Positions 12,540 to 60,740 are shown, counted from the stretch's first letter. The stretch is 64,000 nucleotides of DNA from an uncultured Mollicutes bacterium (GCA_900538885.1 UQAI01000001.1:25862-89861), one strand, 5' to 3'. Program-made: numbers and translations. The notes: generated from the letters alone by a model not told the origin.

Positions 12540-12552
12540 TATTAGTAGAATA

Positions 12553-12583
12553 GGTTTGATACAATGTTATCAAGCCTTTTTTT
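12553..12583 (+). terminator. tRNA-Leu rho-independent terminator hairpin (GGTTTGATACAATGTTATCAAGCC + T7); also candidate attL core
   Basis: 9-bp imperfect palindrome plus T7; near-identical copy without T tail at 62709-62731. Confidence 0.7.
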
Positions 12584-12687
12584 GTAGTTAGAATAGGTGC
12601 GAACTCAGAAAATAAGGTTATTCTGGGTTCTTTTTTCATTTATATATAGATAGTTATTATAAGGGTATTTAGAAGCTCATAGTCATA

Positions 12688-12766
12688 CTTACACGATTAC
12701 ATCAAAGGGTGCTAAAAATTTTACACGATTTGAAGTAGGGGTGCTAACGGTTTACACGATTTGCTA
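12688..12766. repeat. about 2.5 tandem copies of a ~30-bp repeat (TTACACGATT-N8-GGGTGCTAAAAATT), repeat set A
   Basis: direct tandem repetition seen in sequence; same family at 62594-62680 and partial inverted copy at 22645-22670. Confidence 0.8.
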
Positions 12767-12850
12767 CAGAGCATACTTCGTATCAATAGACAAAATGAGA
12801 AAAAAGTGTTATAATTATTGCATAATTTATTCGTTTTCGGAGGGCATAAT

Positions 12851-13042
12851 ATGGATTACGCATCTGCTATAAAGAAATTAAGAAATAAAATGATTCTTAC
12901 ACAGACTGAATTTGCAAAAGAACTCGGTGTTTCTTTTGGAGCTGTTAATAGATGGGAGTCAGGGAAATTTAAACCTACCACTAAAACGAAAAGAAAAATA
13001 GCTGAACTATTTAAGAAATACAATATAGAAGTGGAGGATTAA
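12851..13042 (+). CDS. XRE-family helix-turn-helix transcriptional regulator (possible controller of the R-M operon)
   Basis: HTH_3 pattern TQTEFAKELGVSFGAVNRWESG; start at ATG 12851 behind GGAGGG RBS. Confidence 0.6.
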   Translation: MDYASAIKKLRNKMILTQTEFAKELGVSFGAVNRWESGKFKPTTKTKRKIAELFKKYNIEVED

Positions 13043-13045
13043 TTT

Positions 13046-16000
13046 ATGGCAAGTGGTTTTAATGAAGCAACTAGAGTTCAAATGCCTGCTCTAGTTCATT
13101 TACAAAGATTAGGCTATACATACGTCGGAAAAATAACCGAAGATCAAGCTGGTGTTGTTTATGATCCTGACACCAATATTTTAATCAAAGTCTTTAAAGA
13201 ACAATTTTGTAAGTTGAATCCTGGTCATGAAGGTGAAGCAGAACAAGTACTGAAAGATATTAGAATAGAATTGGATAATGATGATCTAGGTCGTTCATTC
13301 TTTAAAAGAATGCAAATGGTATCACCAGTAAAAATCATAGATTTTGATAATATTCAAAATAACGTATTCCACTATACTGCTGAATTTACATGCAAAAGAG
13401 ATCAAGATGAATTTAGACCTGATATTACATTATTTGTTAATGGATTACCTTTATGTTTTATAGAAGTTAAAAAGCCAAACAATAAAGGTGGATTGATCGC
13501 TGAAAGTAATAGAATGAACAATCAGAGATTTCCAAATAAGAAATTTAGAAGATTCATTAACATTACCCAACTTATGATTTTCTCGAATAATATGGAATAT
13601 GATACTCTTGGAGGAATTGTACCAGTTCAAGGTGCTTTTTATTGTACTGCTTCAAGAAATAAGTCTTTTTTCAGTTGCTTTAGAGAAGAGAATCCTGGCA
13701 ATGCCTCAGTTGCGCCATACAATAAAAATTATCCTTATGAAGAGATTGATGCTGTTGTAGAAAAGAAGATTTTATCTGATTTCAATTGCCAAGTAATTCA
13801 TACATCTCCAGAATATCAAACAAACCTAAATATCAATACACCTACAAATAGAATTTTAACTTCTATGTGCAGTAAAGAACGTCTTATGTTCTTGCTAAAA
13901 TATGGAATCGCATATGTTAAAAGTGAACGTGAAGTTGATGGTAAAATTGAGAGTACAGACCAAAAACATATTATGCGTTATCAACAGATGTTTGCTGCTT
14001 TGGCCATTAGAGAAAAATTAGATAAAGGATTGACAAGCGGTGTTGTTTGGCATACTCAAGGTAGTGGAAAAACCGCACTATCTTATCATCTTAACCATGT
14101 ATTAACTGATTACTTTGCAAAGCAAAATAAAGTAGCAAAATTTTATTTTATCGTTGATAGACTTGATTTATTAGAACAAGCTTCTCAGGAATTTGAAGCC
14201 AGAGGATTGGTTGTAAAAACTGCGAACAGTAGATCAGAATTGATGGCGCAATTTAGAACTAACCAGTCTTTAGAGGGTAATAGTGGTGCCAATGAAGTAA
14301 CTGTTGTTAATATCCAAAGGTTCGAAGAAGATAAAGAGAAAGTTACACTTCCTGATTATGCTACGAATTTACAAAGAATTTTTATAATTGACGAAGCTCA
14401 CAGAGGATATAAGCCAGAGGGTAGTTTTTTAGCTAATCTATTCGATGCTGATCCTAATTCTGTCAAAATCGCATTAACAGGTACACCTTTATTGAAGGAA
14501 GAACGTTCATCTTGGAAAGTATTCGGTACATATTACCATACATATTACTATGATAAATCGATTCAAGATGGATATACATTAAAGGTATTAAGAGAGCCTG
14601 TTGAAACATCATATAAAGAAAAATTATCTGAAATATATGAAAAATTAGAAACACTAGTTCAAAAGAAGGATGTCCAAAGAACACAAATAATTGAGCATGA
14701 TGTTTATGTTAAAGAACTTTTGAGATATATCATTTCAGATTTAAAACAGTTTAGACAAATCCAAGGTGACGATACTCTTGGAGGCATGATCATTTGTGAA
14801 ACAAGTGAGCAAGCAAGAAAATTATTCGCTTTCTTTGATAGCATTCAAAAAGAACTAAATGAGAATGCGTCGTTAAAGAGTTATTTTAAGGCTGGATTAA
14901 TATTGCATGACAGCGATGATAAAGAAACTAGAAAAAAGACTGTTACAAATTTCAAGAAGAACATGACAATCGATATTTTAATCGTATTTAATATGCTATT
15001 AACAGGCTTTGATGCTCCAAGACTTAAGAGATTATATTTTGGCAGAAAATTAAAAGATCACAATTTATTACAAGCTATTACGCGTGTGAATAGACCATAT
15101 AAAGAAAATAGATATGGTTATGTAGTTGATTTTGCTGATATTAAGAAAAATTTCGATGAGACTAACGAAGCTTATATGAAGGAATTAAACCGATTCAATG
15201 ATCCTGGCGAAGTTGGCGAAGGAAACGAGACTGACACATTCAAACAAGTTATAGAAGATAAAGACGCATTGATTCAACAGATGCAAGAGGTAAAGCAAAT
15301 TTTATTTGCTTATACAACGGATAATGCAGAGGAGTTTAGTTCTGAAATCTCTACGATTGAGGATAAAGAAGAACTTTTGAAATTGAAAAAAGCACTGGTA
15401 TCAGCTAGAGATTGTTGCAACATTGTAAGAACATTTGGTGATGATGAATTAAAAGCTAAATTTGCAGCAATGGAGATTACTAAACTTCCTTCATTAATAT
15501 CAGAAGTGCAACATCACATTGACAGCATAAATCAAAAAGAAGCATTAGCTGAAAGTGACTCAACAAAGCAATTAATTAATGAAGCAATGCAAGATATTAC
15601 TTTCAAGTTTCAAATGTTGACAGAAGAAGAAATGAAAATTATTTCAGGAGGCCAGGAGTTAGAAGATAAGTGGAAGAAGACAATTCGTTCATTTACTGAA
15701 AACGAGGACCAAGAAGATCCAGAATACATTACTTTACGTCAAGCATTTATTGAAAGATTCAAAGAACATGGTTTTGTTGTTGAAAGTGTAAGCCAATTTG
15801 AAAATTATACAAAGGAGCTAGATGAAATATTAAAGAAGCTAGCTGAATTGCAAAAGAAGAATAGTGCACTGTTGAAAAAGTACAATGGTGATGCTAAGTA
15901 TGCGCGTGTCCATAAGAGAATTAAAGAAGAAAACGAAAGCAGAAAAGCTAAAGGTGAGAAGCCACTAATTTCTGAATATGATGTCGATATTATGAATGCG

Positions 16001-16213
16001 CTAAAAATTATTAAAGATGAGATAGACCAAAAAGTTTACGATAGGCATGATATCTTGAGAAAAGATGTTTACTTTGAGCAAACAGTTATGGTACATATCA
16101 ATAATGGTATTGATAGATTAGGCTTTGAAAATACTAGGGAAGATAGATTGTTTATTCAATCAAGACTAAGCACCCAGTATTTAAATCAATACCATAATAC
16201 ATATGCAGCATAA
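13046..16213 (+). CDS. hsdR: Type I restriction enzyme R subunit (HsdR)
   Basis: HsdR N-terminal nuclease domain, SF2 helicase motifs TQGSGKT and IIDEAHRG, 1055 aa. Confidence 0.9.
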   Translation: MASGFNEATRVQMPALVHLQRLGYTYVGKITEDQAGVVYDPDTNILIKVFKEQFCKLNPGHEGEAEQVLKDIRIELDNDDLGRSFFKRMQMVSPVKIIDFDNIQNNVFHYTAEFTCKRDQDEFRPDITLFVNGLPLCFIEVKKPNNKGGLIAESNRMNNQRFPNKKFRRFINITQLMIFSNNMEYDTLGGIVPVQGAFYCTASRNKSFFSCFREENPGNASVAPYNKNYPYEEIDAVVEKKILSDFNCQVIHTSPEYQTNLNINTPTNRILTSMCSKERLMFLLKYGIAYVKSEREVDGKIESTDQKHIMRYQQMFAALAIREKLDKGLTSGVVWHTQGSGKTALSYHLNHVLTDYFAKQNKVAKFYFIVDRLDLLEQASQEFEARGLVVKTANSRSELMAQFRTNQSLEGNSGANEVTVVNIQRFEEDKEKVTLPDYATNLQRIFIIDEAHRGYKPEGSFLANLFDADPNSVKIALTGTPLLKEERSSWKVFGTYYHTYYYDKSIQDGYTLKVLREPVETSYKEKLSEIYEKLETLVQKKDVQRTQIIEHDVYVKELLRYIISDLKQFRQIQGDDTLGGMIICETSEQARKLFAFFDSIQKELNENASLKSYFKAGLILHDSDDKETRKKTVTNFKKNMTIDILIVFNMLLTGFDAPRLKRLYFGRKLKDHNLLQAITRVNRPYKENRYGYVVDFADIKKNFDETNEAYMKELNRFNDPGEVGEGNETDTFKQVIEDKDALIQQMQEVKQILFAYTTDNAEEFSSEISTIEDKEELLKLKKALVSARDCCNIVRTFGDDELKAKFAAMEITKLPSLISEVQHHIDSINQKEALAESDSTKQLINEAMQDITFKFQMLTEEEMKIISGGQELEDKWKKTIRSFTENEDQEDPEYITLRQAFIERFKEHGFVVESVSQFENYTKELDEILKKLAELQKKNSALLKKYNGDAKYARVHKRIKEENESRKAKGEKPLISEYDVDIMNALKIIKDEIDQKVYDRHDILRKDVYFEQTVMVHINNGIDRLGFENTREDRLFIQSRLSTQYLNQYHNTYAA

Positions 16214-16225
16214 GGAGAGAAATAT

Positions 16226-17848
16226 ATGAATATTAAACAAAAAACAATTGACTTAATTGATGCATTGAAAGCCACTTGTCAAACATACGGAATGGGTAAT
16301 GATGGAAATGAATATAAAATTATTACACAAGTATTTTTGTATAAGTTTTTAAATGATAAATTTGGACATGAGATTAAAGAAAAGTCAGTAAAAATTGCTA
16401 AAGCAGCTAAATGGGAAGAAGAATATGAAAGCATGAGTAATGAAGAAAGGTTGGATTTATTTGATAAGCTTTCTCCTGATATTCCTCGATTATATCCTGA
16501 ACACCTTATATCGTTTTTATGGAATCAACAAAGTAAAGGTGAATTTGACTTAATTTTCGATAGCACAATGATAGATATAGCTGAGAAGAACATTGATATC
16601 TTCTCGACTATGACAGATGAAAAAACTAGAATTCCTTTATTTGAAAAATTAACCGTATTTGTTACTGATGAAGCTAAAAGAGCGCCATTTGCACGTGCTT
16701 TAGTTGATAAATTAGCAAACTTCTCTTTTGAAGAGGCGTTTTCAGAACACTATGACTTTTTTGCAACAATTTTTGAATATTTGATTAAGGATTACAATAC
16801 AGCAGGCGGTGGAAAGTATGCTGAATATTATACTCCACACTCAATTGCTACAATTATGGCTAGACTATTAGTTGGAGAAACTGATAATTTGCATGACATA
16901 GAAGTATATGATCCATCTGCTGGCACAGGAACATTATTGATGGCTCTTGCACATAAAGTTGGTGAAGATAAGTGCACCATTTATTCTCAAGACATTTCAC
17001 AAAGAAGTAATAAGATGTTGAAATTAAATTTAATATTAAATAATTTAGTTTCATCACTTGATCATGCTATTCAAGGTGATACTTTGGTTTCACCATTTCA
17101 TAAAAATGATGATGGCACTGAGTTAAAACAATTTGACTTTGTTGTTTCTAATCCACCATTCAATATGGATTTTTCTGACACCAGAGATATAATCGCAGCA
17201 AAGACAACTAGATTCTGGGCAGGCGTTCCAAATATTCCAAAGAAAAAACTTGATGGTATGCCAATATATACATGTTTTATACAACATGTTGTTAATTCTT
17301 TAAAGAAAACTGGAAAGGCAGCTATCGTTGTACCTACGGGTTTTTTATCATCTAAAAGTGGTGTTGAAGGTACCGTTTTATCAAAATTAGTGGAAGAGAA
17401 GATAGTATATGGATGTATAAGCATGCCTTCAAACGTTTTTGCTAACACCGGAACTAATGTGTCAGTTTTATTTTTAGATGGTTCTAAATCAAGTACAGAT
17501 GTTATGCTTATAGATGCTTCAAAATTAGGTGAAGAATATAAGGAAGGAAAGAATCAAAAGAGAAGATTAAGAGATTTTGAAATTAATCAGATAGTTGATT
17601 CATTTATTAATAAAGTATCAAATGACGGCTTTTCTATTAACGTTAGTTTGGATAAGGTAAAAGAAAAGAAAAATTCATTATCAGCTGGAATGTATTTTAA
17701 AGTCAAAACTGATAATCCAACTATATCTACCTCAAAATATAATGAAATCGTCTGTGATTATATTACAGCATTGGATGAATACAAGCTAAATGCAGATAAT
17801 TTTGTTGAGTGGGCGAAAGATAGTTTATTAAAGAAGAATGATAAATAG
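16226..17848 (+). CDS. hsdM: Type I restriction-modification N6-adenine DNA methyltransferase subunit (HsdM)
   Basis: HsdM N-terminal domain, SAM motif DPSAGTGTLL, catalytic NPPF motif (VVSNPPFNMDF). Confidence 0.9.
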   Translation: MNIKQKTIDLIDALKATCQTYGMGNDGNEYKIITQVFLYKFLNDKFGHEIKEKSVKIAKAAKWEEEYESMSNEERLDLFDKLSPDIPRLYPEHLISFLWNQQSKGEFDLIFDSTMIDIAEKNIDIFSTMTDEKTRIPLFEKLTVFVTDEAKRAPFARALVDKLANFSFEEAFSEHYDFFATIFEYLIKDYNTAGGGKYAEYYTPHSIATIMARLLVGETDNLHDIEVYDPSAGTGTLLMALAHKVGEDKCTIYSQDISQRSNKMLKLNLILNNLVSSLDHAIQGDTLVSPFHKNDDGTELKQFDFVVSNPPFNMDFSDTRDIIAAKTTRFWAGVPNIPKKKLDGMPIYTCFIQHVVNSLKKTGKAAIVVPTGFLSSKSGVEGTVLSKLVEEKIVYGCISMPSNVFANTGTNVSVLFLDGSKSSTDVMLIDASKLGEEYKEGKNQKRRLRDFEINQIVDSFINKVSNDGFSINVSLDKVKEKKNSLSAGMYFKVKTDNPTISTSKYNEIVCDYITALDEYKLNADNFVEWAKDSLLKKNDK

Positions 17849-17859
17849 GAGCTGTAAAT

Positions 17860-19116
17860 ATGAAACTAAGAAATATATGTAAAATAGTTACAGACTCAAT
17901 TAATCCAAAAAAACAAAAAAATAAGCTTTTCGAGCTATATAGTTTGCCCGCTTTCGATGATTTCAAAAGGCCTGAAAATGTATATGGCTCAGATATCGAG
18001 AGCAATAAGTATTTGGTTCCAGAAAAAACAATATTGTTTAATAAATTAAATGTTAGATTCAAACGTATATGGAGGATCACCAACAATAACCAGGATAATA
18101 AAATATGCTCAACTGAGTTTCTACCAATAATTGTTGATGAAAAAATAGCCGATTTTGATTATGTTTATTTTTTATTGATGTCAGATCAAGTCACAGAATA
18201 CTTATGTGCACCAACAACTAATACTTCTGGAAGTCATAAGAGAATAGATCCAGATTTTCTACTTGATATGGAAATATCCTTGCCTGAATTAGACGAGCAA
18301 GTTCGCGTTGCAAGAAAACTAAAAACGCTAGATGATGAGGTTCAGTGTTGTTTTGATTTTGAAACTAAATCATTTAAATTTTTAAAAGATACATATGATT
18401 ACTGGTTTGTTTCTTATAACTTTCCTAACAATAATGGTGATGCATATAGTGAAAATGGTGGAACATTTGTAGAGGACAAAGAAACAGGTATTAATTATCC
18501 AACAAAATGGAGTTTTAATAAGATCGGACAGTATTTTAATGTTGTGAGAGGTGTAAGTTATAAGCCTGAAGATACTTCGGAAATAGAAACCGATATTCAT
18601 ATGCCGTTATTAAGATCAAATAATATTTACGACGAGAGATTAATACATGAAGATATAGTGTTTGTTGATAAAAAAAGGGTAAGTGAAGAACAAATATTAC
18701 ATGCAAATGATGTGTTTATTTGTATGTCTAATGGCAGTAAAAATTTAATTGGTAAAAATACAATTATTCCATATGATACAGAATATGCCTTTGGAGCTTT
18801 TTGTGCTAAAATTAAGAATATAGATTGCGATTATTTAGGCTTTATAAACTTATTCTTTAAGAGTAATTATTATAAAGCTTATATCGCACAAATATGTGCA
18901 AACACTAGTATAAATAATATCGGAAATGAAATGTTAACTGACTTAAAATATCCATTACCTCCGCTAAATATCGCTAAAAAGTTTAATGAAATATATTTAA
19001 AAGTAATGTCTGAAGTCGGGAATGCGCATAAATTTATGTTATCGACAAGAACATTATTAGAAAAACATATATTTATGGACATGAATGGAGTACTCATAAA
19101 TAGTTCAGAAGATTAA
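17860..19116 (+). CDS. hsdS: Type I restriction-modification specificity subunit (HsdS), two target-recognition domains
   Basis: 418 aa, duplicated TRD/conserved-helix architecture, immediately downstream of hsdM. Confidence 0.85.
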   Translation: MKLRNICKIVTDSINPKKQKNKLFELYSLPAFDDFKRPENVYGSDIESNKYLVPEKTILFNKLNVRFKRIWRITNNNQDNKICSTEFLPIIVDEKIADFDYVYFLLMSDQVTEYLCAPTTNTSGSHKRIDPDFLLDMEISLPELDEQVRVARKLKTLDDEVQCCFDFETKSFKFLKDTYDYWFVSYNFPNNNGDAYSENGGTFVEDKETGINYPTKWSFNKIGQYFNVVRGVSYKPEDTSEIETDIHMPLLRSNNIYDERLIHEDIVFVDKKRVSEEQILHANDVFICMSNGSKNLIGKNTIIPYDTEYAFGAFCAKIKNIDCDYLGFINLFFKSNYYKAYIAQICANTSINNIGNEMLTDLKYPLPPLNIAKKFNEIYLKVMSEVGNAHKFMLSTRTLLEKHIFMDMNGVLINSSED

Positions 19117-19358: not shown

Positions 19359-21188
19359 TTATGCTTTCCTTACATTCTTTAAGAAGCCGTATCTACCTTT
19401 GTTTTCTTTTTGAGTGAACTTGTAGATAACAACATCATCGTTAATTTCTAATTCAGGCAATTCGCTGTATTTTGTGTTTTCAATTATAACGATCTGGTCT
19501 GCTGTTTCAAGATTTATTAAATAATCAAAGAATCCTTTTCTAACGTTATCTGAATCCTCATCTTTATCTTCAGGAACTGATAATCCCTTAAGTGGTGAAT
19601 CTAAGAACCAGAAGCAGCCTTTGTTGGCACTTTTTTCTTCTATGTACTTCCTTAAAAGAAGAATAAGCATGGAGTTGGTGAACGCTTTATATCCTTTACC
19701 ACGTCTGATCTTATTCTTATTGTTAACTATTAAATCTAACTTGGTTTCAGTAAAGTCAATAGTACTGATATTTGGGTATTTAACGTCAGTAAAGATTTGA
19801 ACACCGTTATCAATTACATATTGACCTATGATTGAGAATAGAATTTTCTTTGCTTCAAATTTTAGTTTAGGTACATCATCACCTTTTTGGTATTTCTTTA
19901 AGTCTTCTTCAAGATCAACGTCATTTGCTCCTAGTTCATCAATCGCAGACTTAAGTCGAATATACTCTTCATAACTTTGAATTTTTTTCGCAAGTTCTGT
20001 TCTCTTAGGAGTAAGGACTTCATTGATTTTTGTTTTGTTGATTTCTATTGTTTCTTTATAGACAGCAATTAGATCCCCATCATCATCCAATGTATCTTTT
20101 AGCATTGCTGATGTCTCATCTAGTTCATTAAGATTGTTAACAACATTTCTTAGTTCGACTTTTGCAGCTTCGATATAAGAAGTAGGGTTTTTTGGAGTCA
20201 TTTCATGGTCACAGTAAGGGCATTTAGATTTTGTTGTCTTGTGGCCTATAGAGACTTCATTATTAACGATAAATGTTAATCTATTAATTTCCTTTTGATA
20301 GTCACTTTTTAATTCTTCATATTTAGAGAATATTAATTCATTTTTTTGTTGTTTCTTTTGAAGAGTCATTAAGTTAAATGATGTAGTGGTATTTTCAGAT
20401 GTTAAGCGTTCAATCTCATCGTTTAACTTTATAAGACTCTCATTTAGTTCTTGAATAACAGTTTCTAATGAAGCTAGGTCAATGCCTGATTGCTTTAGTT
20501 TATCTTCTAAAACTTCCTTCTTTTTAGACATAGCTATTCTATGTTCTGAAATGTAGGCGATTACTGCATTTCTTTTTGCTTTTTTGATTTCGTCAGATTC
20601 ATCTTTTTTTAGATAGTCTTCTAGCGTATTTCCAGTAAGGAAATATATTAATGCAGCAAGATATGTGGTCTCTCCATTTTGTTGAAGAAGTACGGATTTA
20701 GGCTTGTCAGCTTTATCTTCATCAATTAGGAATGTTTTTTTAATCGTTCTCCAAGAAAATCTTTCTGGATCGCCATCAATATTAGAAGGAATCTTAAGGT
20801 CATCCTTTAATCCTAATATCTTAAGCATCAATTTATCTATCGTTTTATTATTTTTTTTACCTTCCTTAAGAACATATTCGCCGCTTTCAATTTCAGGATT
20901 GTCACAAGAAACTGTGGTTTTAGAAGTGCCTTGTACTCTGGTTAGTGTGATGTCACCGTATTGAGTTTCAATTATTAGGGTGATGGTATCAAACCCATCT
21001 GACTCATCGAATGGAGCATGATCGTCATCGTTTTTAGCACCAAGTACATAATCAACGCATTTATAAATACAGGATTTACCAGTATCAGAAGGTCCAGCGA
21101 TAATGGTTAGTTTATTTCCGAATTCAATTTCTGATGGTTCAGCATTTGGTCCGGTAGCAATAAGCTTTTTAAGTTTAATAAAACCCAT
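19359..21188 (-). CDS. Rad50/SMC-like ABC ATPase with central coiled coil and CxxC zinc-hook (LmuB / ABC-3C ATPase-like)
   Basis: Walker A GPSDTGKS at N-terminus, ~250-aa heptad-rich coiled coil with CPYC at its midpoint, C-terminal Walker B/D-loop FWFLDSPLKGLS. Confidence 0.6.
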   Translation of the reverse strand: MGFIKLKKLIATGPNAEPSEIEFGNKLTIIAGPSDTGKSCIYKCVDYVLGAKNDDDHAPFDESDGFDTITLIIETQYGDITLTRVQGTSKTTVSCDNPEIESGEYVLKEGKKNNKTIDKLMLKILGLKDDLKIPSNIDGDPERFSWRTIKKTFLIDEDKADKPKSVLLQQNGETTYLAALIYFLTGNTLEDYLKKDESDEIKKAKRNAVIAYISEHRIAMSKKKEVLEDKLKQSGIDLASLETVIQELNESLIKLNDEIERLTSENTTTSFNLMTLQKKQQKNELIFSKYEELKSDYQKEINRLTFIVNNEVSIGHKTTKSKCPYCDHEMTPKNPTSYIEAAKVELRNVVNNLNELDETSAMLKDTLDDDGDLIAVYKETIEINKTKINEVLTPKRTELAKKIQSYEEYIRLKSAIDELGANDVDLEEDLKKYQKGDDVPKLKFEAKKILFSIIGQYVIDNGVQIFTDVKYPNISTIDFTETKLDLIVNNKNKIRRGKGYKAFTNSMLILLLRKYIEEKSANKGCFWFLDSPLKGLSVPEDKDEDSDNVRKGFFDYLINLETADQIVIIENTKYSELPELEINDDVVIYKFTQKENKGRYGFLKNVRKA

Positions 21189-21190
21189 AA

Positions 21191-21628
21191 TTATTTCTTA
21201 ACTCCTTTCGTTCTATCTTTTAATTTTTGTATCGTAATAGGCTTCATTTCATCTATGATGTTAGAAGCGAATTTTTTATATTCTATAGAGTAATCATCGT
21301 TCATTTCTGACACATATGCCTTACCAGAATCGGTAATTGCGTATATAAAACCTCTATCTGGATTGTTCGTTACAGTAGCAAGACCTCTGAATAATAGTTC
21401 TTTTAGCGAGTTCTTTATAAGCTTGCGCTGTATTGTGAACTCGTTAAGTGGAAATGAGCAGACACCGTTTAAGTTTGATTCACCAAATCCATAATGTTCA
21501 GCATATATGGCAAAGAAGTCCAGACGCGCTATTTCATCTTCGTTTAGATAACTTTGTTTATCTAAAATCATAAGAAGGCGCATAGAAACTTCAAATTCAG
21601 TATTAAAAAGCTTTGTCATTATAGCCAC
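21191..21628 (-). CDS. small alpha-helical middle component (LmuC-like) of the three-gene ATPase system
   Basis: 145 aa, overlaps upstream gene by 10 nt and sits 2 nt from ATPase gene; size and position match the middle component of ABC three-component systems. Confidence 0.4.
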   Translation of the reverse strand: MAIMTKLFNTEFEVSMRLLMILDKQSYLNEDEIARLDFFAIYAEHYGFGESNLNGVCSFPLNEFTIQRKLIKNSLKELLFRGLATVTNNPDRGFIYAITDSGKAYVSEMNDDYSIEYKKFASNIIDEMKPITIQKLKDRTKGVKK

Positions 21629-22581
21629 CTTACCTTTCCGTCATTAACAAGCATGTGGACCATGCCCATTTTCTCTTCAGTTCCTACCATACCATTGCCA
21701 GCAGTAGTGAAATAACTTTTTGAAAAGGTAATAACCATCACTTTATCCATTGTCTTATTTAATTTTTCATAAGCATCAGGAACCATTGAATTTGTATAAA
21801 GTCTTATTGCTTTATAAATCTCGTCTTTCATAGATGAAAATTCCTGTTCACCATCGTAGAAGAAATTTCTAACTTGTCTTAGCACCGTTTCAGCACTATA
21901 AAAGGCTTCACGATGTATTTGTAATTCCATTTGATAAACTGGATGACCATCCAAATCACCTATCGATGATATTGATTCACCAGTCTTTTGCGAGTAAACA
22001 GATAATAGTGCAGTTACATATTCACTTTCCATATCGTCGGGATTATCTGGGACAGTAAGTGCTGGTGGTAGAGTGTATTCAGTTCCACCAATTCTAACTT
22101 TATTGCCTGGAAGGAACACAGCTTTTTTAATAGATGTTTTTCTATTCTTCTCTGAACGCTCTTGAAGTAAATCTGCAAAGACATTAGCTAATTCTTCAGG
22201 TAAGTCAATACCTGCAAGAGTGACTCCTTTCTTAGCAAAGTTATCAATAAGTAAGCCTATGGCTTCATCAGTCAATTCAGCTGCATCATATACATCTTGA
22301 AAGTACTCTGATGTTATTTTACTTTTTAAATATCTGGCATCCTTAATTGGCATGTCGGTGTCATTTGTTTCATTAAGCAATTTTTCACAGTAGTTTTCAG
22401 ACTTCATTGTTATGTCATTAAGAATTTTATTATCGATTAATGAAATATCTGTAAACCAAGTTATTACATCTTGGTAAATAAGACGTGCACTTAATCTATG
22501 TGTTTCAGGATCGACTTGTATTTGGCTGGCAAATGCATTCTTAATTAAGTTTATAAACTCGTATATTTTCATTATTATCAC
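21619..22581 (-). CDS. first gene of the three-gene operon; candidate sensor/effector (LmuA-like position) with no recognisable catalytic motif
   Basis: 320 aa, translationally coupled to the next gene; no nuclease/TIR/Sir2/protease signature visible by eye. Confidence 0.4.
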   Translation of the reverse strand: MIIMKIYEFINLIKNAFASQIQVDPETHRLSARLIYQDVITWFTDISLIDNKILNDITMKSENYCEKLLNETNDTDMPIKDARYLKSKITSEYFQDVYDAAELTDEAIGLLIDNFAKKGVTLAGIDLPEELANVFADLLQERSEKNRKTSIKKAVFLPGNKVRIGGTEYTLPPALTVPDNPDDMESEYVTALLSVYSQKTGESISSIGDLDGHPVYQMELQIHREAFYSAETVLRQVRNFFYDGEQEFSSMKDEIYKAIRLYTNSMVPDAYEKLNKTMDKVMVITFSKSYFTTAGNGMVGTEEKMGMVHMLVNDGKVRWL

Positions 22582-52935: not shown

Positions 52936-53310
52936 ATGAATGAGATTTTACTTAATGTTTTATCGGTTTTACTAACTGCAGTTATTTTGCCTTTGATATC
53001 TATTGCAGGAACTCAACTTATAAAATTCATCAATTCAAAAATCAAGAATAATGAATTAGTTAAACAGCTAACAACAGCAACTACTATCGTGACAAATGCT
53101 GTAAGAGCGGTATTTCAAACTTATGTTGATAGCCTTAAGAAGAGTGGTAACTTTGGAAAAGAAGCTCAAATTGAGGCTCTAAACAAGGCTAAAGAGCTAA
53201 CACTTGCTCAGCTAAGTGAAGAGGTTAAAGAGTACATCACTAAGAACTATGGCGACATCAATACTTGGCTTACAACTCAGATTGAAGCAACAATTAACTT
53301 GATAAAATAA
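52936..53310 (+). CDS. holin (LL-H / phi-LC3-like family)
   Basis: 124 aa; N-terminal TM helix then long amphipathic hydrophilic tail; last gene before the terminator. Confidence 0.5.
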   Translation: MNEILLNVLSVLLTAVILPLISIAGTQLIKFINSKIKNNELVKQLTTATTIVTNAVRAVFQTYVDSLKKSGNFGKEAQIEALNKAKELTLAQLSEEVKEYITKNYGDINTWLTTQIEATINLIK

Positions 53311-53319
53311 ACAAATTAA

Positions 53320-53356
53320 TCCCTGATTTCCTTTTTGGAGTCAGGGACTTTTTTTG
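53320..53356 (+). terminator. rho-independent terminator (tccctga-N14-tcaggga + T8)
   Basis: seen in sequence after the holin gene. Confidence 0.75.
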
Positions 53357-53432
53357 TTTGCAGATTTATTTTTGGACTGCTAAGTAGTATAATATAGGTG
53401 AAAGATAAATTAGAATTTGTGAGGATGATAAG

Positions 53433-53927
53433 ATGGTCAATATAACAGATGTAAGACAGATTCTTCAATTCGCAATAGATGCGGAGATTAAAGTCTTTCT
53501 TGATGGCGGCTGGGGTGTAGATGCACTTCTTGGATATCAGTCAAGAAGCCATAACGATATTGATATTTTTGTAGAAAAGAAAGATTATCAGAATTTTATA
53601 GAGATAATACAAGCTAATGGATTTTATGAAATTAAGATGGAATATACAACATTGAATCATACTGTATGGGAAGATGCGAAAAACAGAATTATTGATTTGC
53701 ATTGTTTTGAATATACAGGCAAAGGTGAAATTCTTTATGAGGGGGATTGCTTTCCGTTAGAAATTTTTTCAGGTAAAGGAAAAATTGAGGAGATAGAGGT
53801 TTCCTGTATTGAACCATATAGTCAAGTAATGTTCCATCTCGGATACGAGTTTGATGAAAATGATGTACATGATGTGAAGTTATTGTGTGAGACATTTCAT
53901 ATCGAAGTTCCAAATGAGTATAGATAA
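53433..53927 (+). CDS. Lnu(A)/ANT(2'')-family nucleotidyltransferase (candidate lincosamide/aminoglycoside nucleotidyltransferase)
   Basis: FLDGGWGVDALLGYQSRSHNDIDIF matches Lnu(A) WLDGGWGVDVLTGKQQREHRDIDIDF and AadB GGGWAIDARLG...HDDIDL; C-terminal FHLGYEFDENDVHDVKLL matches Lnu(A) FHSGYDLTETDHFDIKNL; 164 aa. Confidence 0.6.
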   Translation: MVNITDVRQILQFAIDAEIKVFLDGGWGVDALLGYQSRSHNDIDIFVEKKDYQNFIEIIQANGFYEIKMEYTTLNHTVWEDAKNRIIDLHCFEYTGKGEILYEGDCFPLEIFSGKGKIEEIEVSCIEPYSQVMFHLGYEFDENDVHDVKLLCETFHIEVPNEYR

Positions 53928-53957
53928 CGACAAATTCCTATTTAACGAGCAGTTATT

Positions 53958-53992
53958 CCCTCAATCCTTAATTGGAAAGAGGGGTCTTTTTT
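53958..53992 (+). terminator. rho-independent terminator (CCCTC-AATCCTTAATTGGAAA-GAGGGG + T6), copy 1 of an identical pair
   Basis: 27-bp core identical to 56802-56828. Confidence 0.75.
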
Positions 53993-54105
53993 ATTTATCT
54001 CCAATATTATTGGATTATTGGATTTTTTGGATAATTTGTGATATAATGATTTAACTAAAACCGATTTTATGATTTTAGCTAATATAATAATTCGGAGGCA
54101 CGATT

Positions 54106-56784
54106 ATGAAAAAAATTGGTAGATTTATTGTTTTATCTATTTTTATGATGTCAGTTATCTTTATGACTGGTTGTAGCAACAACACTCCTTATATTGGAGA
54201 AAATGGAAACTGGTGGGTTGGCGAGTCTGACACTGGGGTTCCGGCACAAGGTGAAAAAGGTGATAGTGGCGAAAAAGGTGACAAAGGAGATAAGGGTGAC
54301 AAAGGAGATAAAGGTGACACTGGGGATTCAGTAACTGTTGTTTCAGTTAAAAAAACAGGAACTGAAGAAAACGTCGATACATATACAATCACTTTCTCTG
54401 ATGGAAATACTTCAACATTTACTGTTACAAATGGTGCTGATGGCGAATCAGTTAATGTTGAATCAGTAACTAAGATTGGTTCTGATGGATTAGTTGATAC
54501 TTATAAAATAATGTTTTCTGATGGTACTGAATATACTTTTACAGTAACTAACGGAGCTGATGGCGAGTGCATAACAATTGAATCAATTGAAAAAACTGGT
54601 TCAGATGAATTAGTTGATACTTACACAATTACATTATCTGACGGAAACAAATTCACATTTACCGTTACTAATGGAAAAGACGGATTAACTCCTTATATTG
54701 GTCCTAATGGCAACTGGTGGATTGGCGATGAAGATACTGGCGAATTCGCTTCTTATAACTATGAAACTAGAGATATTACTGATGGATTAACATTTACACC
54801 TATGACCATAAATGGAAAAGGTGGTTTTGTTGTTACTGGTTTTGATCCTGTTGTTGCATACGGCAGTGAAATTTATAATCTTTTAGATAACTATCCAGAA
54901 CAATACGCGTCAACTTATGGAATTATTAATATTCCTGATTATTTAGGTACAACTCCTGTTATTGGAATCAAAGCTGAAATGTTTAAAAACGTTGATTATA
55001 TCGGCAAAGTTTCACTTTCAAGAAATACAGTTTATCTTGGAGATAATGTTTTTAATACTTGCTCAAATTTACAAGAAATTGATTTTAATGGAGCACCATT
55101 AGAAAAACTTCCAGACTATGCTTTTTATAAAACAAAACTTCAAAGCATTGATTTACCTGAAACTTTAGAAACTTTAGGTGCATATTCTCTTGCAAATACT
55201 AAATTAAAATCTATTGAATTACCAAATTCATTAACGAGATTAGAAAGTCATGCTTTATATGGAAATACTATAAAAGATATTGATATTAATAATGTTACTT
55301 ATTTTGCAGATTATTCATTATATGGAATTCATGGTAATCCTATTTATTTAACGAATGATGTTGAATATGTTGGTAGTTACGCTTTTGCTGGAACTTATGT
55401 TTATATCGAACAGGAAACAATCCCTACAACTTGGGAAAGCAATATTGCAGGTACTAGTACGTATTATGGTGGAATTGTTACTCCTAATTGTTTAATTAAT
55501 GATGAGTATATTTACTCTAAGAACGGAAATGAAATAACAGTATTAAATTATATAGGAACTGATAAACGAATTGAAATTCCTAGTTTAATTGATTCTCTAC
55601 CAGTTACAAAAATTGGATACGGTTTCAACTCTGTTAGTGAAATTGGACTTAATGTTTATGATAATATTTATACTGAAGAAAGTGGCGAAAACTATTTCAG
55701 TTATATGGTAAGAGCAGAACAAGTAGTAATTCCAAATTCAGTAAAAGCAATTGATTTAGGAGCATTCAATAATTTATTTACTACAATTTATATTCCTTCA
55801 AGCGTAGAAAAAATAAGCACTTATGCTTTAATCATTGACAATGATGACTTGTCATCAAACTTTATGATTTTTGAAGCTAATTCATATCCTACATTGATTA
55901 AAGGTTGGGTAGATGGCGAAAATGAAGGCGAAATTGATGGTGCACTATGGTTTGATGACGAAAACTATATTTGCTATTATCGCAATATCAAAAATACAAA
56001 ATGGGAAGATGTTTATTTTAATGAAGAAACAAATTCATACTATATTAAAGATTTATTTGGTTATACTTTAATTGCTTATATGAACCATGAAGTTGGTAGT
56101 AAAATTGTAATCGAATCAACTTTCAATAACGAAACTGTTCATACTATTAGAAAAGGTGCTGTTTATGGATTCTTTAATCCTAAATCCTTAATCATAGAAG
56201 ATGGAATTAAAAAGATTCAAAAGTATGCGTTTATGATGTGTGCAGACTTCAATTATGCTTATATTCCTAGCAGTGTAACAACAATTAATGCCTATGGATT
56301 TGCTGATGTTTGTTATAGATTCTATACAAATCACACATCAAAACCAGATGAATGGGATACACAATGGGCTGGTTCTTCATCTAGTTATACAATTACTTAT
56401 AAAACTGAATTAGGTGAGATTCCTACAATATCTTTTGATGGAAAGTATGAATATGCAGTTCTTGATGATGGAACAGTAAGTCTAGTTAAGTATTTGGGTT
56501 CTTCATCAACATCTACAATTAAAGTTCCAAGAACAATTGATGGATATACAGTAACTGAAGTAAAGAGCAATTGTTATTCAATTTCATACTCTTCTACAGT
56601 TTACATTTATATTCCTAAATCAATTCTTGTGTTAGAAGAAAATGCATTTTATCGCTCTTACACTTATTATACAACTTATGTTTATTTTGAAGCTGAATCT
56701 GCTTTACCTGGCTATCACTCAAAATTCACCAATACATCTTCTAGCTATTTAACTAAATACTGGAATAGAAGTATCGGATACTAA
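54106..56784 (+). CDS. surface lipoprotein with collagen-like GDK repeats, three tandem ~45-aa repeats and a BspA/internalin-type leucine-rich-repeat domain
   Basis: signal peptide plus lipobox [30 protein letters not shown], repeated TYTITFSDGN.TFTVTNGADGE units, C-terminal LRR periodicity. Confidence 0.7.
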   Translation: MKKIGRFIVLSIFMMSVIFMTGCSNNTPYIGENGNWWVGESDTGVPAQGEKGDSGEKGDKGDKGDKGDKGDTGDSVTVVSVKKTGTEENVDTYTITFSDGNTSTFTVTNGADGESVNVESVTKIGSDGLVDTYKIMFSDGTEYTFTVTNGADGECITIESIEKTGSDELVDTYTITLSDGNKFTFTVTNGKDGLTPYIGPNGNWWIGDEDTGEFASYNYETRDITDGLTFTPMTINGKGGFVVTGFDPVVAYGSEIYNLLDNYPEQYASTYGIINIPDYLGTTPVIGIKAEMFKNVDYIGKVSLSRNTVYLGDNVFNTCSNLQEIDFNGAPLEKLPDYAFYKTKLQSIDLPETLETLGAYSLANTKLKSIELPNSLTRLESHALYGNTIKDIDINNVTYFADYSLYGIHGNPIYLTNDVEYVGSYAFAGTYVYIEQETIPTTWESNIAGTSTYYGGIVTPNCLINDEYIYSKNGNEITVLNYIGTDKRIEIPSLIDSLPVTKIGYGFNSVSEIGLNVYDNIYTEESGENYFSYMVRAEQVVIPNSVKAIDLGAFNNLFTTIYIPSSVEKISTYALIIDNDDLSSNFMIFEANSYPTLIKGWVDGENEGEIDGALWFDDENYICYYRNIKNTKWEDVYFNEETNSYYIKDLFGYTLIAYMNHEVGSKIVIESTFNNETVHTIRKGAVYGFFNPKSLIIEDGIKKIQKYAFMMCADFNYAYIPSSVTTINAYGFADVCYRFYTNHTSKPDEWDTQWAGSSSSYTITYKTELGEIPTISFDGKYEYAVLDDGTVSLVKYLGSSSTSTIKVPRTIDGYTVTEVKSNCYSISYSSTVYIYIPKSILVLEENAFYRSYTYYTTYVYFEAESALPGYHSKFTNTSSSYLTKYWNRSIGY
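54376..54705 (+). repeat. three tandem ~135-bp intragenic repeats in the lipoprotein gene
   Basis: near-identical protein units; DNA periodicity visible. Confidence 0.7.
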
Positions 56785-57635: not shown

Positions 57636-57851
57636 ATGACTCCTTTGGAAAGATATATGGCTTCAGTTAAGGTTCTTGAGAAGATGGTTAAGGAAGGCTT
57701 GATTGATGAAAAAGAGTACATGAAAGTCGAATCGTTCCTAGCTAAAAAACACTGTATCAAACCTGACAGCATTTACCGTTCAAATCACTTGCTATTTCAG
57801 AGAAATAGAGTGATAGATAGTAATGCAAAAAAGGAGGCAAATAATGGATAG
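57636..57851 (+). CDS. small protein with SHOCT-like C-terminal motif
   Basis: 72 aa; GLIDEKEYMKVESFLAKK resembles the SHOCT motif. Confidence 0.3.
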   Translation: MTPLERYMASVKVLEKMVKEGLIDEKEYMKVESFLAKKHCIKPDSIYRSNHLLFQRNRVIDSNAKKEANNG

Positions 57852-59187
57852 AAACATAATCAAAATTGATGCAGAAAAGCAATTGAAATCCAGAATTAGG
57901 GTTTGCGCTTATGCTCGTGTTTCAAGAGATAAGGATGCGATGTTTCAATCGCTGTCAGCTCAGGTTAGCCATTACAACAAGATGATTAACAGCAACCCAG
58001 AATGGCAGTTCAAGGGAGTCTATGCGGATTATGCATTTTCAGGAACAAAGGAAGATAGACCGGAATTCCAAAAGATGCTGGAAGCCTGCAAAGCTGGTGA
58101 GATTGATTTAATTATCACAAAATCAATTTCAAGGTTCGCCAGAAACACAGAAACAGTGCTTAAAGTAGTTAGGGAATTAAAGGCTAGGGATGTAGATGTT
58201 TACTTCGAGGAACAAAAGATCCATACGATATCATCGGATGGTGAGTTCATGCTTAGCGTGCTTGCTGCTTATTACCAAGAGGAAGCCAGGTCGGTTTCAG
58301 AAAATATGAAATGGCGAATTAAGAAAGATTTCAGTCAAGGCATCATGTGGGGTGGCAAAGATAACTACGGTTACAAATATGACATCGATAAGAAGACGTT
58401 CATTGTAGTTCCTGAAGAGGCTGCTGTAGTTAAGCGAATCTTCGAACTATACATTGCTGGAGCAGGATTTCAAAAGATATCCAGCATCCTGAACTTGGAA
58501 GGCATAAAACCAATGACTGCAAATGAGTGGAGCAAGAATAACGTGACAGCCGTCATAAGCAACTCAAACTACACAGGCGACCTAATCCTTCAGAAGACAT
58601 ACCGCAAGGATTACCTATCAAAGAAAAAATGCAAGAACAACGGTGAGCTTCAGAAATACCTTGTCGAAGAGAACCATGAGCCAATAATCACTAAAGAGAT
58701 GTTTGAAAAGGCACAGAAAATCAGAAATGAGAGAATTATGAAGTATGACATTAAAACCAGAAAGGCAAAGAATAACTACCCTTTCACAGGCATTCTTAGA
58801 TGCGGATGCTGCGGTGGAGCATATCATCACAAGACGACAAGGTACAACTTAATCTGGATTTGCAGAACCTACAACACCAAAGGGAAAGGCTTCTGCTCAA
58901 GAAGCAAGCAAATAGATGAACGCAAGCTTTATGATGCGATTAACCAATACTTCGGTTGGGATAAGTTCAAACAAGATAAGTTCCTAGAGAAGGTTGAGAA
59001 GATTATAGCTAATCCAGGGAATGAGCTAGAGATTCACCTTAAGGATGGAACGGTTGACAAAATCTATTGGAATGACAGAAGCCGAAGCGAGGCATGGACT
59101 GATGATATGAAATCTAAAGCTAGAGCTAAGGCATTTAAACAAAACGAATTAAGAGGAGGGAACAACAGATGGCAAAAGTCAAAGTAA
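57844..59187 (+). CDS. large serine recombinase (CcrA-like size)
   Basis: N-terminal resolvase domain with catalytic-serine region VCAYARVSRD, recombinase domain, C-terminal Cys-rich zinc ribbon; about 448 aa. Confidence 0.8.
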   Translation: MDRNIIKIDAEKQLKSRIRVCAYARVSRDKDAMFQSLSAQVSHYNKMINSNPEWQFKGVYADYAFSGTKEDRPEFQKMLEACKAGEIDLIITKSISRFARNTETVLKVVRELKARDVDVYFEEQKIHTISSDGEFMLSVLAAYYQEEARSVSENMKWRIKKDFSQGIMWGGKDNYGYKYDIDKKTFIVVPEEAAVVKRIFELYIAGAGFQKISSILNLEGIKPMTANEWSKNNVTAVISNSNYTGDLILQKTYRKDYLSKKKCKNNGELQKYLVEENHEPIITKEMFEKAQKIRNERIMKYDIKTRKAKNNYPFTGILRCGCCGGAYHHKTTRYNLIWICRTYNTKGKGFCSRSKQIDERKLYDAINQYFGWDKFKQDKFLEKVEKIIANPGNELEIHLKDGTVDKIYWNDRSRSEAWTDDMKSKARAKAFKQNELRGGNNRWQKSK

Positions 59188-60740
59188 TACCACAAACGAT
59201 AAATCCGATGACAATGTCAGTTATTGGCTCAACTCAAAAAAGAAAAGTTGCTGCTTATGCCAGAGTAAGCACCGAGAATGAAGAACAACAATCATCATAT
59301 GAAGCACAGGTCAAATACTACACTGAGCATATAGCAACCAGACCAGACTGGGAATTCGTGAAGGTGTATTCTGATGAAGGTATATCAGGAACCAACACAA
59401 AAAGAAGAGTTGGCTTTAGATCGATGATACAGGATGCAGTTGATGGGAAGATTGACCTAATTCTAACCAAATCAATATCGAGATTTGCCAGAAACACCTT
59501 AGACAGCATATCCTACATTAGACAATTGAAAGCTGCTGGAACTGAGGTCTATTTTGAAAAGGAAAATTTATGGACATTCGATTCAAAGTCTGAAATGGTG
59601 CTGTCTATGCTTAGTGCTATTGCTCAAGAGGAAAGCCGAAGCATCTCAGAGAACGTTAAGATGGGCAAGAGATGGCAAATGAAGGAAGGAAAGGTTACAA
59701 TTCCTTGTAAGGCGTTCTTAGGATACCAAAATATAGATGGTAAGATTACGATTGATAAGGATGAGGCAATCATCGTTAGAAGAATTTACTCAATGTTCTT
59801 AAAGGACGGTATGACAAGAAAGGCTATAGCAGATACTCTGAAGGCTGAGGGAATTCCTACTCCATCAAAGAAAGGCTGCAACTGGACCGTCAACAACATT
59901 CAGTCGATACTCACCAACGAGAAGTACAAAGGCGATGCATTGCTACAAAAGGTCTATTGCGACGATTATCTTGAGCACAAGGTAAAGAAGAACAACGGTG
60001 TGTTACCTCAATATTACGTTGAGAATTCGCATCCTGGAATCATCAACAAAGAAGAATGGACAATGGTTCAGGAGGAGCTTAAGAGAAGAGAAGGCATCAG
60101 ATACTCATACCAAACAAGCAATCCTTATTTAGCAAAGCTTAGATGCTCGGAATGCGGACACTTCTTCGGAATCAAGGTATGGCATTCCAACTCAATCCAC
60201 AGAAAAGAGGTATTGCAATGCAACGGCAAATACAAATGCGGATGCAAGTCACCTAATCTTAGCCAAGATGAAGTCAACAGGAAGTTCATAGAAGCCTACA
60301 ACCAAGTGATGGACAACAAGAAAGGCTTGATAGAAGACACCAAAGAGGTCATAGAAATGCTAACCTCAACTGAGAAAATAGACGCGAAGGTACAAGCATT
60401 AACGAATGAGATGGAGGAGGTTCAGCTATTGGTAGAGAACCTAATTCACGACAATGCCAGAAGGAACCAAGACCAAGAAGAGTACGAAAGACACTATCAA
60501 GAGTTGGTAAGTCAATTCAATGCAGCTAAAGCTAAAATGAAATCCTTGCTAGAGGAAAAACAATCCAAACTAGACAGGATTGAAATACTTAATGCTTTCA
60601 TTGTTTCCTTAGAAGATAAAGAAGCCGTCATAGATGAATTCTCAACTGATCTATGGAACTTAATGATTCAAGATGCATTAGTCAGCGAGGATGGAACAAT
60701 TAAGTTTGTATTCAAGAATGGAACAGAAATTACAATGTAA
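59169..60740 (+). CDS. large serine recombinase (CcrB-like size), overlapping the upstream recombinase gene by 19 nt
   Basis: AAYARVSTENEEQQSS catalytic region, recombinase domain, zinc ribbon CSECG...C, C-terminal coiled coil; 523 aa. Confidence 0.8.
   Translation: MAKVKVIPQTINPMTMSVIGSTQKRKVAAYARVSTENEEQQSSYEAQVKYYTEHIATRPDWEFVKVYSDEGISGTNTKRRVGFRSMIQDAVDGKIDLILTKSISRFARNTLDSISYIRQLKAAGTEVYFEKENLWTFDSKSEMVLSMLSAIAQEESRSISENVKMGKRWQMKEGKVTIPCKAFLGYQNIDGKITIDKDEAIIVRRIYSMFLKDGMTRKAIADTLKAEGIPTPSKKGCNWTVNNIQSILTNEKYKGDALLQKVYCDDYLEHKVKKNNGVLPQYYVENSHPGIINKEEWTMVQEELKRREGIRYSYQTSNPYLAKLRCSECGHFFGIKVWHSNSIHRKEVLQCNGKYKCGCKSPNLSQDEVNRKFIEAYNQVMDNKKGLIEDTKEVIEMLTSTEKIDAKVQALTNEMEEVQLLVENLIHDNARRNQDQEEYERHYQELVSQFNAAKAKMKSLLEEKQSKLDRIEILNAFIVSLEDKEAVIDEFSTDLWNLMIQDALVSEDGTIKFVFKNGTEITM

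Follow-up and report, generated by a model that had tools for sequence, protein, structure and literature searches.

How does an antibiotic resistance gene come to lie, as a single gene, between the lysis and integration modules of a prophage, and which DNA moves with it? The question is raised by a 64,000-nucleotide stretch from an uncultured Mollicutes bacterium (GCA_900538885.1, UQAI01000001.1:25862-89861; the window), which represents a genome of low G+C (GC) content (~30%) carrying a prophage of 37–42% GC. Between the holin gene and a BspA-type lipoprotein gene of the prophage lies an open reading frame (ORF) of 164 codons (53433..53927, + strand), for which the original prediction, made from the sequence alone, had proposed a Lnu(A)/ANT(2'')-family nucleotidyltransferase carried as a prophage moron. 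We find that the ORF is an allele of lnu(C) and that it has very probably been acquired as a single promoterless 525-bp cassette, docked at a short palindromic core in an expression slot of the prophage. The gene is known; the architecture of cassette and slot, which recurs with many genes across gut Clostridia, is the interesting part.

The ORF runs from an ATG at 53433 to a TAA at 53925–53927. Its product matches the Pfam family PF10706 (Aminoglyc_resit) nearly end to end (E = 6.5e-24), confirming the proposed family, and carries the motifs GGWGVD (residues 25–30), HNDIDIF (residues 40–46), and FHLGYEFDE in which a likeness to Lnu(A) had been seen. These motifs are present, but the protein is not Lnu(A). 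Among the NCBI curated resistance models, Lnu(C) (NF000141) is matched with 351.6 bits against a cut-off of 300, residues 1–164 aligning with model positions 1–164, whereas Lnu(D) (212.6 bits; cut-off 325) and Lnu(P) (206.9 bits; cut-off 300) score below their cut-offs. Lnu(A) is ruled out by a score of 58.7 bits against 300 (NF000236) and by 31% identity to the LnuA structure sequence, and ANT(2'')-Ia by a score of 25.9 bits against 350 (NF000064), confined to the N-terminal 48 residues. Among proteins of solved structure, LnuA (4FO1 and 4WH5) is matched (E = 9e-14), and ANT(2'')-Ia is matched over the N-terminal 48 residues only. PADLOC returned no match for the protein.

The alignment with reference Lnu(C) is ungapped, with 150 of 164 residues identical (91%) and 14 different. 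Reference copies lie beside ISSag10 in Streptococcus phage phi-SgaBSJ27_rum and in plasmids of Enterococcus, Glaesserella, Cetobacterium, and Streptococcus. The canonical allele differs from the gene in the window at 31 nucleotides, with a dN/dS of 0.22. In an alignment with Lnu(C), Lnu(D), Lnu(P), and LnuA, residues G25, G26, D42, D44, and D88 and the C-terminal FH.GY motif are invariant. The exact protein is deposited as MBS5858633.1, under the NCBI name 'lincosamide nucleotidyltransferase Lnu(C) [Clostridium sp.]', and is found on 333 contigs. The macrolide–lincosamide–streptogramin (MLS) nomenclature assigns one gene name at an amino-acid identity of at least 80%, and the identity to reference Lnu(C) is above this threshold. 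The original prediction would have been refuted had the closest homologues been low-identity, uncharacterised paralogues; instead, a validated homologue with 91% identity is found. Enzymes of the Lnu family use ATP and Mg2+ to adenylylate, and so inactivate, lincomycin and clindamycin. In the protein described here, D42 and D44 would bind ATP and Mg2+, and D88 would provide a third carboxylate for the adenylylation of both drugs. Because the protein is 91% identical to a validated Lnu(C) and exceeds the Lnu(C) cut-off and not those of Lnu(A) or ANT(2''), its substrate is far more likely a lincosamide than an aminoglycoside, so that only the lincosamide half of the proposed 'lincosamide or aminoglycoside' enzyme is retained. 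We regard the ORF as a known resistance determinant in a new allele, with a predicted resistance phenotype.

The gene lies in a compact arrangement on the + strand: terminator, TATAAT, left site (L-site) GATAAATTAGAATTTG, ribosome-binding site (RBS), ORF, right site (R-site) ACAAATTCCTATTTAACGAGCAGTT, and terminator. The first terminator (53320..53357; stem at 53320–53347 followed by a T-run) would end the holin transcript; it has an 11-pair stem, was called by the terminator scan, and folds at −17.8 kcal/mol (z = −4.29). The perfect −10 box TATAAT (53388..53393) lies 39 nt upstream of the ATG. The L-site (53404..53419) is the left copy of a palindromic core, and it is here that homology to other contexts of the gene begins (BLAST boundaries at 53404 and 53388). 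The R-site (53930..53954) consists of the right core copy and the outer arm of a longer palindrome, and positions 53406–53420 form an inverted repeat with 53930–53944. A hairpin and U-run at 53957..53992 (−13.1 kcal/mol; z = −1.61) is the probable slot terminator. Of the two terminators that had been proposed around the gene, the upstream one was called by the scan, and the downstream one is visible as a hairpin with a U-run that the consensus terminator scan did not call. No Rfam family covers the leader or the trailer (the only match has E = 0.64). In most other contexts a −10 box lies at the equivalent place upstream of the L-site, giving comparative support for the promoter. Based on the layout and on the conserved position of the −10 box, expression of lnu(C) in the lysogen probably starts at the promoter of the slot, with a terminator on either side as insulation; the lysogen would thus express the gene from a phage-supplied promoter, independently of the late operon.

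The same phage was found in other metagenomes by look-up of the exact holin protein, and its slot occurs in three states. In the occupied state (the window and contigs L013 and L014), TATAATATAGGTGAAAGATAAATTAGAATTT is followed by a segment reading GTGAGGATGATAAG-ATG...lnu(C)...TAA-CGACAAATTCCTATTT, and then by AACGAGCAG. In the replaced state (L017), the flanks are the same and the segment is GTAGGTGCGA-ATG...TAA-CTTATAAATTCCTATTT, with an unrelated 81-residue ORF that has no Pfam or NCBIfam match and no relatives in IMG/VR. In the empty state (L019), the segment is wholly absent and GATAAATTAGAATTT is joined directly to AACGAGCAG, with identical flanks and an exact junction. The promoter and both terminators are unchanged in all three states, including the −10 box in L019 and the downstream hairpin in L017 and L019. 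The mobile segment defined by alignment of the window with L017 and L019 is therefore 53419..53943, a promoterless stretch of 525 bp that comprises the RBS, lnu(C), and the right core copy AAATTnnnATTT. The core is palindromic, so that its two copies also read as inverted repeats. These observations bear out the idea of a prophage moron, in that the gene lies inside a complete prophage and an otherwise identical phage has an empty slot or another gene. They also correct the claim that the gene has its own promoter: a perfect TATAAT is present upstream, but it belongs to the phage slot, is kept when the slot is empty, and is not part of the mobile segment. An exact 31-mer of the phage slot gave no match in the JGI metagenomes, and the phage was found in ENA and Logan data only. 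In L019, an extra insert of ~75 bp (665–735), flanked by repeated CTTTTTTATTTAT and absent from the window, follows the slot terminator.

Outside phages, the exact protein is encoded in at least four further contexts: between metA-like genes and an ars operon, beside an EamA transporter gene, beside a helix-turn-helix (HTH) gene, and, where tRNA 3'-end repeats occur, between the spoIIA operon and the RNase Y gene. These contexts share only 545–566 bp with the window, at ~99% identity, and the homology ends at the sites. In all, the cassette is known, at 99–100% identity, from no fewer than five contexts that are unrelated to one another. The GC content of the gene (32.9%; phage backbone, 37.6%; host flank, 30.5%) had been taken as host-like; with an identical cassette in many unrelated genomes, it is not evidence of host origin. 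A scan with one genome per species yielded ~35 cassette-type lnu loci in isolates, metagenome-assembled genomes (MAGs), and viral contigs, with alleles 83–100% identical to the gene in the window. The isolates include Butyricicoccus pullicaecorum DSM 23266, Christensenella sp. MSJ-20, Eubacterium sp. AF22-8LB, an Oribacterium, and Yanshouia hominis. The L-site is the conserved left end throughout, the borders reading gAyAAAynnGAATTTG-RBS-ATG on the left and TAA-CnnCAAATTCCArTTTrTCGAAC on the right, and the DNA outside them is unrelated.

In chromosomal contexts (L006, 9245–10927; L003, 9554–11050) the lnu(C) cassette lies inside elements of ~1.2–1.3 kb that are flanked by direct repeats of tRNA 3' ends (...CCACCA) and carry the motifs CGGAACGAWAG and TGTACGCA at a 20-bp period. 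They resemble miniature integrative elements that lack an integrase and are stacked at tRNA genes.

The site is not confined to lnu genes. The full site is a near-perfect palindrome of 30–34 bp, AACnGTTnGACAAATTccAATTTGTCnAACnGTT, with a 14-bp palindromic core, CAAATTnnAATTTG. When metagenomes were scanned with the R-site consensus CAAATTCCARTTTRTCGAACNGTT, 51 contigs were matched, and 38 of these have an ORF of 60 codons or more that ends 0–36 nt upstream on the same strand. These ORFs belong to 28 unrelated families, which include an MFS transporter, nucleotidyltransferases, GNAT acetyltransferases, and PhzF-like, NUDIX, flavodoxin, alpha/beta-hydrolase, isochorismatase, and SAP/DUF6434 proteins. 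The L-site is present in the 5' untranslated region (UTR) of 22 of the 31 complete ORFs, and TATAAT lies just upstream in 19 of those 22. Moreover, the same platform can hold different cargo between outer flanks that are 89–99% identical: one platform carries a gene for a 107-residue protein in L142, lnu in L168, and a gene for a 234-residue protein in L176, and a second carries lnu in L173, an isochorismatase-like gene in L159, and a SAP-domain protein gene in L169. A further empty platform, a perfect palindrome behind TATAAT, is found in L162. The 34-bp palindrome (for example L176, 4470–4512; window, 53930–53954) holds two inverted TGTCGAA heptamers. This heptamer is the '0A box' consensus of Spo0A, and its presence could link cassette expression to sporulation signalling or be a coincidence.

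Several cassettes can follow one another behind one promoter. In L025 (4975–8377), a Clostridia MAG from roe-deer gut with a backbone of the integrative and conjugative element (ICE) type, the array consists of lnu(C), an AAC(6') gene (NF043067; 199 bits, cut-off 140), an MBL-fold hydrolase gene, and a PNP-like gene together with an ANT(6) gene (NF033084; 450 bits, cut-off 420). The cassettes are separated either by a 41-nt junction, present twice in identical form, or by a single fused 14-bp core, CAAATTCCAATTTG. Two loci with a common ICE backbone (L028 and L030) differ by one extra cassette of 63 codons at the site. Related arrays in other orders are seen in L143, L165, and L174. Neither the 41-nt inter-cassette junction nor the 24-nt R-site pattern gave a match in IMG/VR.

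The remaining ~60 loci of the lnu scan are canonical ISSag10-lnu(C). This form was described in Streptococcus agalactiae UCN36 on MTnSag1/tISSag10 (Achard & Leclercq; reviewed in PMC5704250), in which the transposase is that of ISSag10 (IS1595 family), the terminal inverted repeats are 25 bp long, and 8 bp of the target are duplicated (PMC5704250). It shares with the gene in the window the name and a colinear 164-residue product. At the nucleotide level, MTnSag1 is 93.4% identical from 25 nt before the ATG to 8 nt past the stop codon, and the homology is limited to 53408–53935. A tISSag10/MTnSag1 element is ruled out at the window, where there is no transposase ORF near the gene, no 25-bp insertion sequence (IS) end, and no 8-bp duplication; here, lnu(C) occupies the phage slot as a cassette alone. 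Degenerate L- and R-sites persist in the tISSag10 copy (TAATTAGAATTTGTGGAG upstream and CTGCAAATAACAGTTTGT downstream), and cassette-borne alleles in L055, L143, and L039 are 98.2–99.6% identical to canonical lnu(C). The IS element therefore looks derived, and capture of a cassette by ISSag10 is the simplest reading of these sequences. Recognisable sites are also kept by lnu(D) and lnu(P). In L121 (2932–3500), from the Streptococcus suis phage phi-SsuSSJ28_rum, the Lnu(D) gene is followed by ACAAATTCCGATTTAATTAGAATTTAGAGGAGG, corresponding to R-site, L-site, and RBS, and in L126 (1840–2480) lnu(P) of tISCpe8 is preceded by GAATAAATAGAAATTTCTAGAGG. By this comparison, the cassette ends are older than the divergence of lnu(C), lnu(D), and lnu(P).

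How would a cassette enter the slot? In the scheme that we propose, the phage would supply, in order, the holin terminator, the −10 promoter, a palindromic attachment site, and a terminator. A cassette with one core copy would integrate at the core inside the 30–34-bp palindrome, leaving a core copy on each side; the palindromic copies would then read as inverted repeats of 15–27 bp. A like exchange would put other cargo in the same slot, build multi-cassette arrays, and bring the lnu(C) cassette into further slots, carried by ICEs, small integrative elements, and chromosomes. The exchange would be catalysed by a putative site-specific recombinase acting in trans and encoded away from the sites. 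The central bases of the core bear on the type of enzyme: those of the left core are AG, TG, or GG depending on the platform, and those of the right core are always CC, a pattern that fits crossing over at one position, on the right-hand edge of the centre. By analogy, this is the pattern of integron-type or lambda-type tyrosine recombination and not that of a serine recombinase, for which the central dinucleotides must match.

Several points weigh against this account. The allele differs from the validated enzyme at 14 residues, and its resistance is predicted from sequence. Despite the perfect −10 box, the promoter scan gave no −35 element and no TG extension. The empty and replaced states come from two short metagenome contigs (L019, 994 bp; L017, 4.9 kb). 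Clustering of ORFs found no recombinase family common to 37 cassette loci; one platform lies beside a tyrosine integrase, and the slot of the window lies 3.9 kb from two serine integrases. The links to recombinases are thus inconsistent among loci, and no enzyme can be named. Neither in the 180 loci compared nor in IMG/VR is there a circular-cassette or tandem junction joining the R-end to the lnu L-end. The long inter-cassette junction is folded no more stably than shuffled sequence (−4.4 kcal/mol; z = 0.09), and a folded substrate like attC was rejected on this ground. Conserved sites of 24–34 bp might suffice for homology-driven exchange without a dedicated enzyme.

Recombinase genes directly flank a slot in only one case. 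The platform shared by L168 and L176 (249–1496 and 2627–3655 in the orientation used), which is widespread, lies directly downstream of a tyrosine integrase gene, and in L168 and L135 the same platform lies upstream of a gene for a 226-residue small serine recombinase.

The main rival, which we consider unlikely but in need of serious weighing, is that the palindromes are mainly regulatory (an operator, pairing of the 5' and 3' UTRs, or an RNase III-type signal) and that cargo is swapped by ordinary or phage-assisted short-homology recombination with no dedicated recombinase. Both sites are transcribed, since the L-site separates the −10 box from the RBS and the R-site follows the stop codon directly; platforms with different cargo are identical through the whole L-site and R-site, as a double crossover in flanking homology would leave them; a Sak4-like single-strand annealing protein and a RusA resolvase are among the prophage products; and no recombinase is linked to the sites. 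However, an empty slot has one core copy and an occupied slot two, which is the pattern of integration, and two neighbouring cassettes of an array may have just one 14-bp core between them, a length insufficient for RecA-type recombination. The systematic difference between the left and right central bases also points to one fixed crossover, and the site has been conserved in hosts and elements that have diverged very widely.

The imperfect inverted repeats of 15–27 bp that flank the gene (AACnGTTnGAyAAAyTnGAATTTG ... CAAATTCCAATTTGTCGAACnGTT) could alternatively be the ~24-bp ends of a non-autonomous transposon, that is, a cargo-carrying miniature inverted-repeat transposable element mobilised by a DDE transposase in trans. 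We judge this improbable: there is no target-site duplication outside the repeats, the empty site is a complete palindrome with one core copy and not a clean target or a footprint, adjacent cassettes share one site, and in unrelated contexts the repeats are bordered on the outside by a promoter and a terminator at fixed positions. Inverted repeats bracketing a whole ORF downstream of a fixed promoter would also suit an ON/OFF switch in which a recombinase flips the ORF and makes resistance phase-variable, and trans-acting invertases are common in Clostridia. Yet all cassette-type loci examined have the ORF in one orientation, leading away from the TATAAT, no inverted copy is seen, and inversion would explain neither empty slots nor replaced cargo nor arrays, which makes a switch the least probable of these alternatives. 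As to the enzyme itself, the 14 substitutions, the prediction of resistance from sequence, and the remark in the original prediction that many family members are cryptic would fit a cryptic or housekeeping nucleotidyltransferase that confers no lincosamide resistance. This too is improbable, and slightly more so than a transposon, given the score above the curated Lnu(C) cut-off, an identity beyond the MLS naming rule, intact catalytic residues in a gene under purifying selection, identical copies across unrelated genomes, and the presence of lnu(C) in arrays with aac(6') and ant(6). A promoterless lnu(C) cassette acquired at the core thus remains our preferred reading.

The arrangement resembles integron cassettes in that promoterless single-ORF cassettes, each ending in a palindromic site, lie behind a platform promoter; resistance arrays, one apparent crossover position, and cargo rich in small-molecule-modifying enzymes are further shared features. 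In contrast to attC, the site lacks the GTTRRRY/RYYYAAC cores (R''/L''/L'/R' boxes) and is a near-perfect 30–34-bp palindrome with its 14-bp core. Unlike in integrons, no IntI-type integrase is adjacent in the 37 cassette loci, where a tyrosine integrase lies beside one platform only, and the slots, most of which hold one cassette, lie scattered among phages, ICEs, small integrative elements, and chromosomes. Complete integrons were not found in Firmicutes genomes (PMC4889954). The pdif modules, with 28-bp XerC/XerD sites, have been described as unique to Acinetobacter plasmids (PMC13141974). They too are resistance or accessory modules between inverted short recombination sites; they are arranged in different ways on related backbones and depend for their movement on a recombinase whose gene lies elsewhere. 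Hosts and carriers differ. The site described here seems to have no evident likeness to the dif sequences of Firmicutes. Functionally, the cassettes are similar to both integrons and pdif modules. With classical morons the cassette shares a position between the lysis and integration modules, a terminator upstream and a probable one downstream, a GC content below that of the phage, and absence from a sibling phage. It differs from them in that the promoter and terminator stay behind and only the RBS, ORF, and core move, and in that there is a defined site shared with non-phage elements.

Taken more widely, these features suggest a cassette system in Clostridia and other Bacillota, with promoterless single-gene cassettes that carry the 14-bp core, scattered slots made of promoter, site, and terminator, resistance arrays, and an unlinked recombinase. 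Such a system would be an analogue of integrons and a pool from which ISSag10 could have captured lnu(C). We put this forward tentatively, as a proposal whose chances we rate slightly short of even. Literature searches for such cassettes returned no description, which is not proof of novelty.

The prophage that houses the slot is, by its gene content, complete and of siphovirus type. Its replication and regulation genes encode a sigma-like regulator, the Sak4-like annealing protein, a helicase, a primase, RusA, and a ParB/methyltransferase protein; its head genes encode the small and large terminase, portal, protease, and major capsid protein; and its tail and lysis genes encode the tape measure, Dit, a tail protein, a collagen-repeat tail fibre, and the holin. 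The holin gene (52936..53310, + strand; phrog_13712, E = 7.4e-28) is the last of the late operon before the slot. The position claimed for lnu(C), just after the lysis genes, is thus right with respect to the holin directly upstream, but no endolysin was recognised across the otherwise complete prophage (23000–60740). The usual place of an endolysin gene, after the holin gene, is taken by the cassette slot and then by a second accessory gene (54106..56784, + strand; PF13306 LRR_5, E = 2.9e-41). This gene encodes a predicted lipoprotein of 892 residues with collagen-like repeats, repeated modules of ~45 residues, and BspA-type leucine-rich repeats, and it has its own extended −10 promoter, TGTGATATAAT, at ~54037–54047. 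At the right end of the prophage, two large serine recombinases (57823..60740, + strand; Resolvase, Recombinase, and Zn_ribbon_recom domains) match the phrog_95 integrase (E = 5e-116 and 3e-132) and are the prophage integrases.

At the left edge lies a Lamassu/ABC-3C anti-phage operon (19359–22581, − strand), with LmuA at 21619–22581, LmuC at 21191–21628, and LmuB at 19359–21188, recognised by PADLOC (E = 6e-50 to 3e-151) and by the Pfam domains MC2 and CTD6. It accompanies the phage in all other contigs seen. Further left (12454–19116), a tRNA-Leu(GAG) gene is followed by a type I restriction–modification system (hsdR, 13046–16213; hsdM, 16226–17848; hsdS, 17860–19116), and all contigs with the HsdS of the window also have the Lamassu operon and the phage. 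Because the restriction–modification system and the Lamassu operon always accompany the phage, the left prophage boundary is blurred, and the integrated element may begin near tRNA-Leu(GAG) and be ~48 kb long.

Prophage-borne lnu(C) is in itself not new, since it has already been reported in surveys. In one of them lnuC is named as the commonest resistance gene in single-genus gut prophages (PMC10841027), and in another a lnu(C)-like gene with 92% amino-acid identity is placed in an Agathobacter prophage (PMC11080232). In the passages considered, the two surveys agree with the present case in having a lnu(C)-like gene in prophages of gut or rumen Clostridia, and list the gene only, without cassette boundaries, empty or replaced slots, or a flanking site. 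The lnu(C) allele alone adds little to this; it is another gut prophage copy, of interest mainly for resistome surveillance. Carriage as a cassette, on the other hand, would explain how an identical 0.5-kb resistance gene comes to be in prophages, conjugative elements, and chromosomes of unrelated anaerobes without a transposase, and would give the widespread tISSag10-lnu(C) a concrete origin. It suggests that integron-like cassette shuffling takes place in Gram-positive gut anaerobes and has already brought lnu(C), aac(6'), and ant(6) together in arrays. If true, this would be a functional analogue of the integron in a phylum without complete integrons in genome surveys, and the short, easily searched site would offer a route to catalogue the mobile cargo genes of Bacillota and to seek the responsible recombinase.

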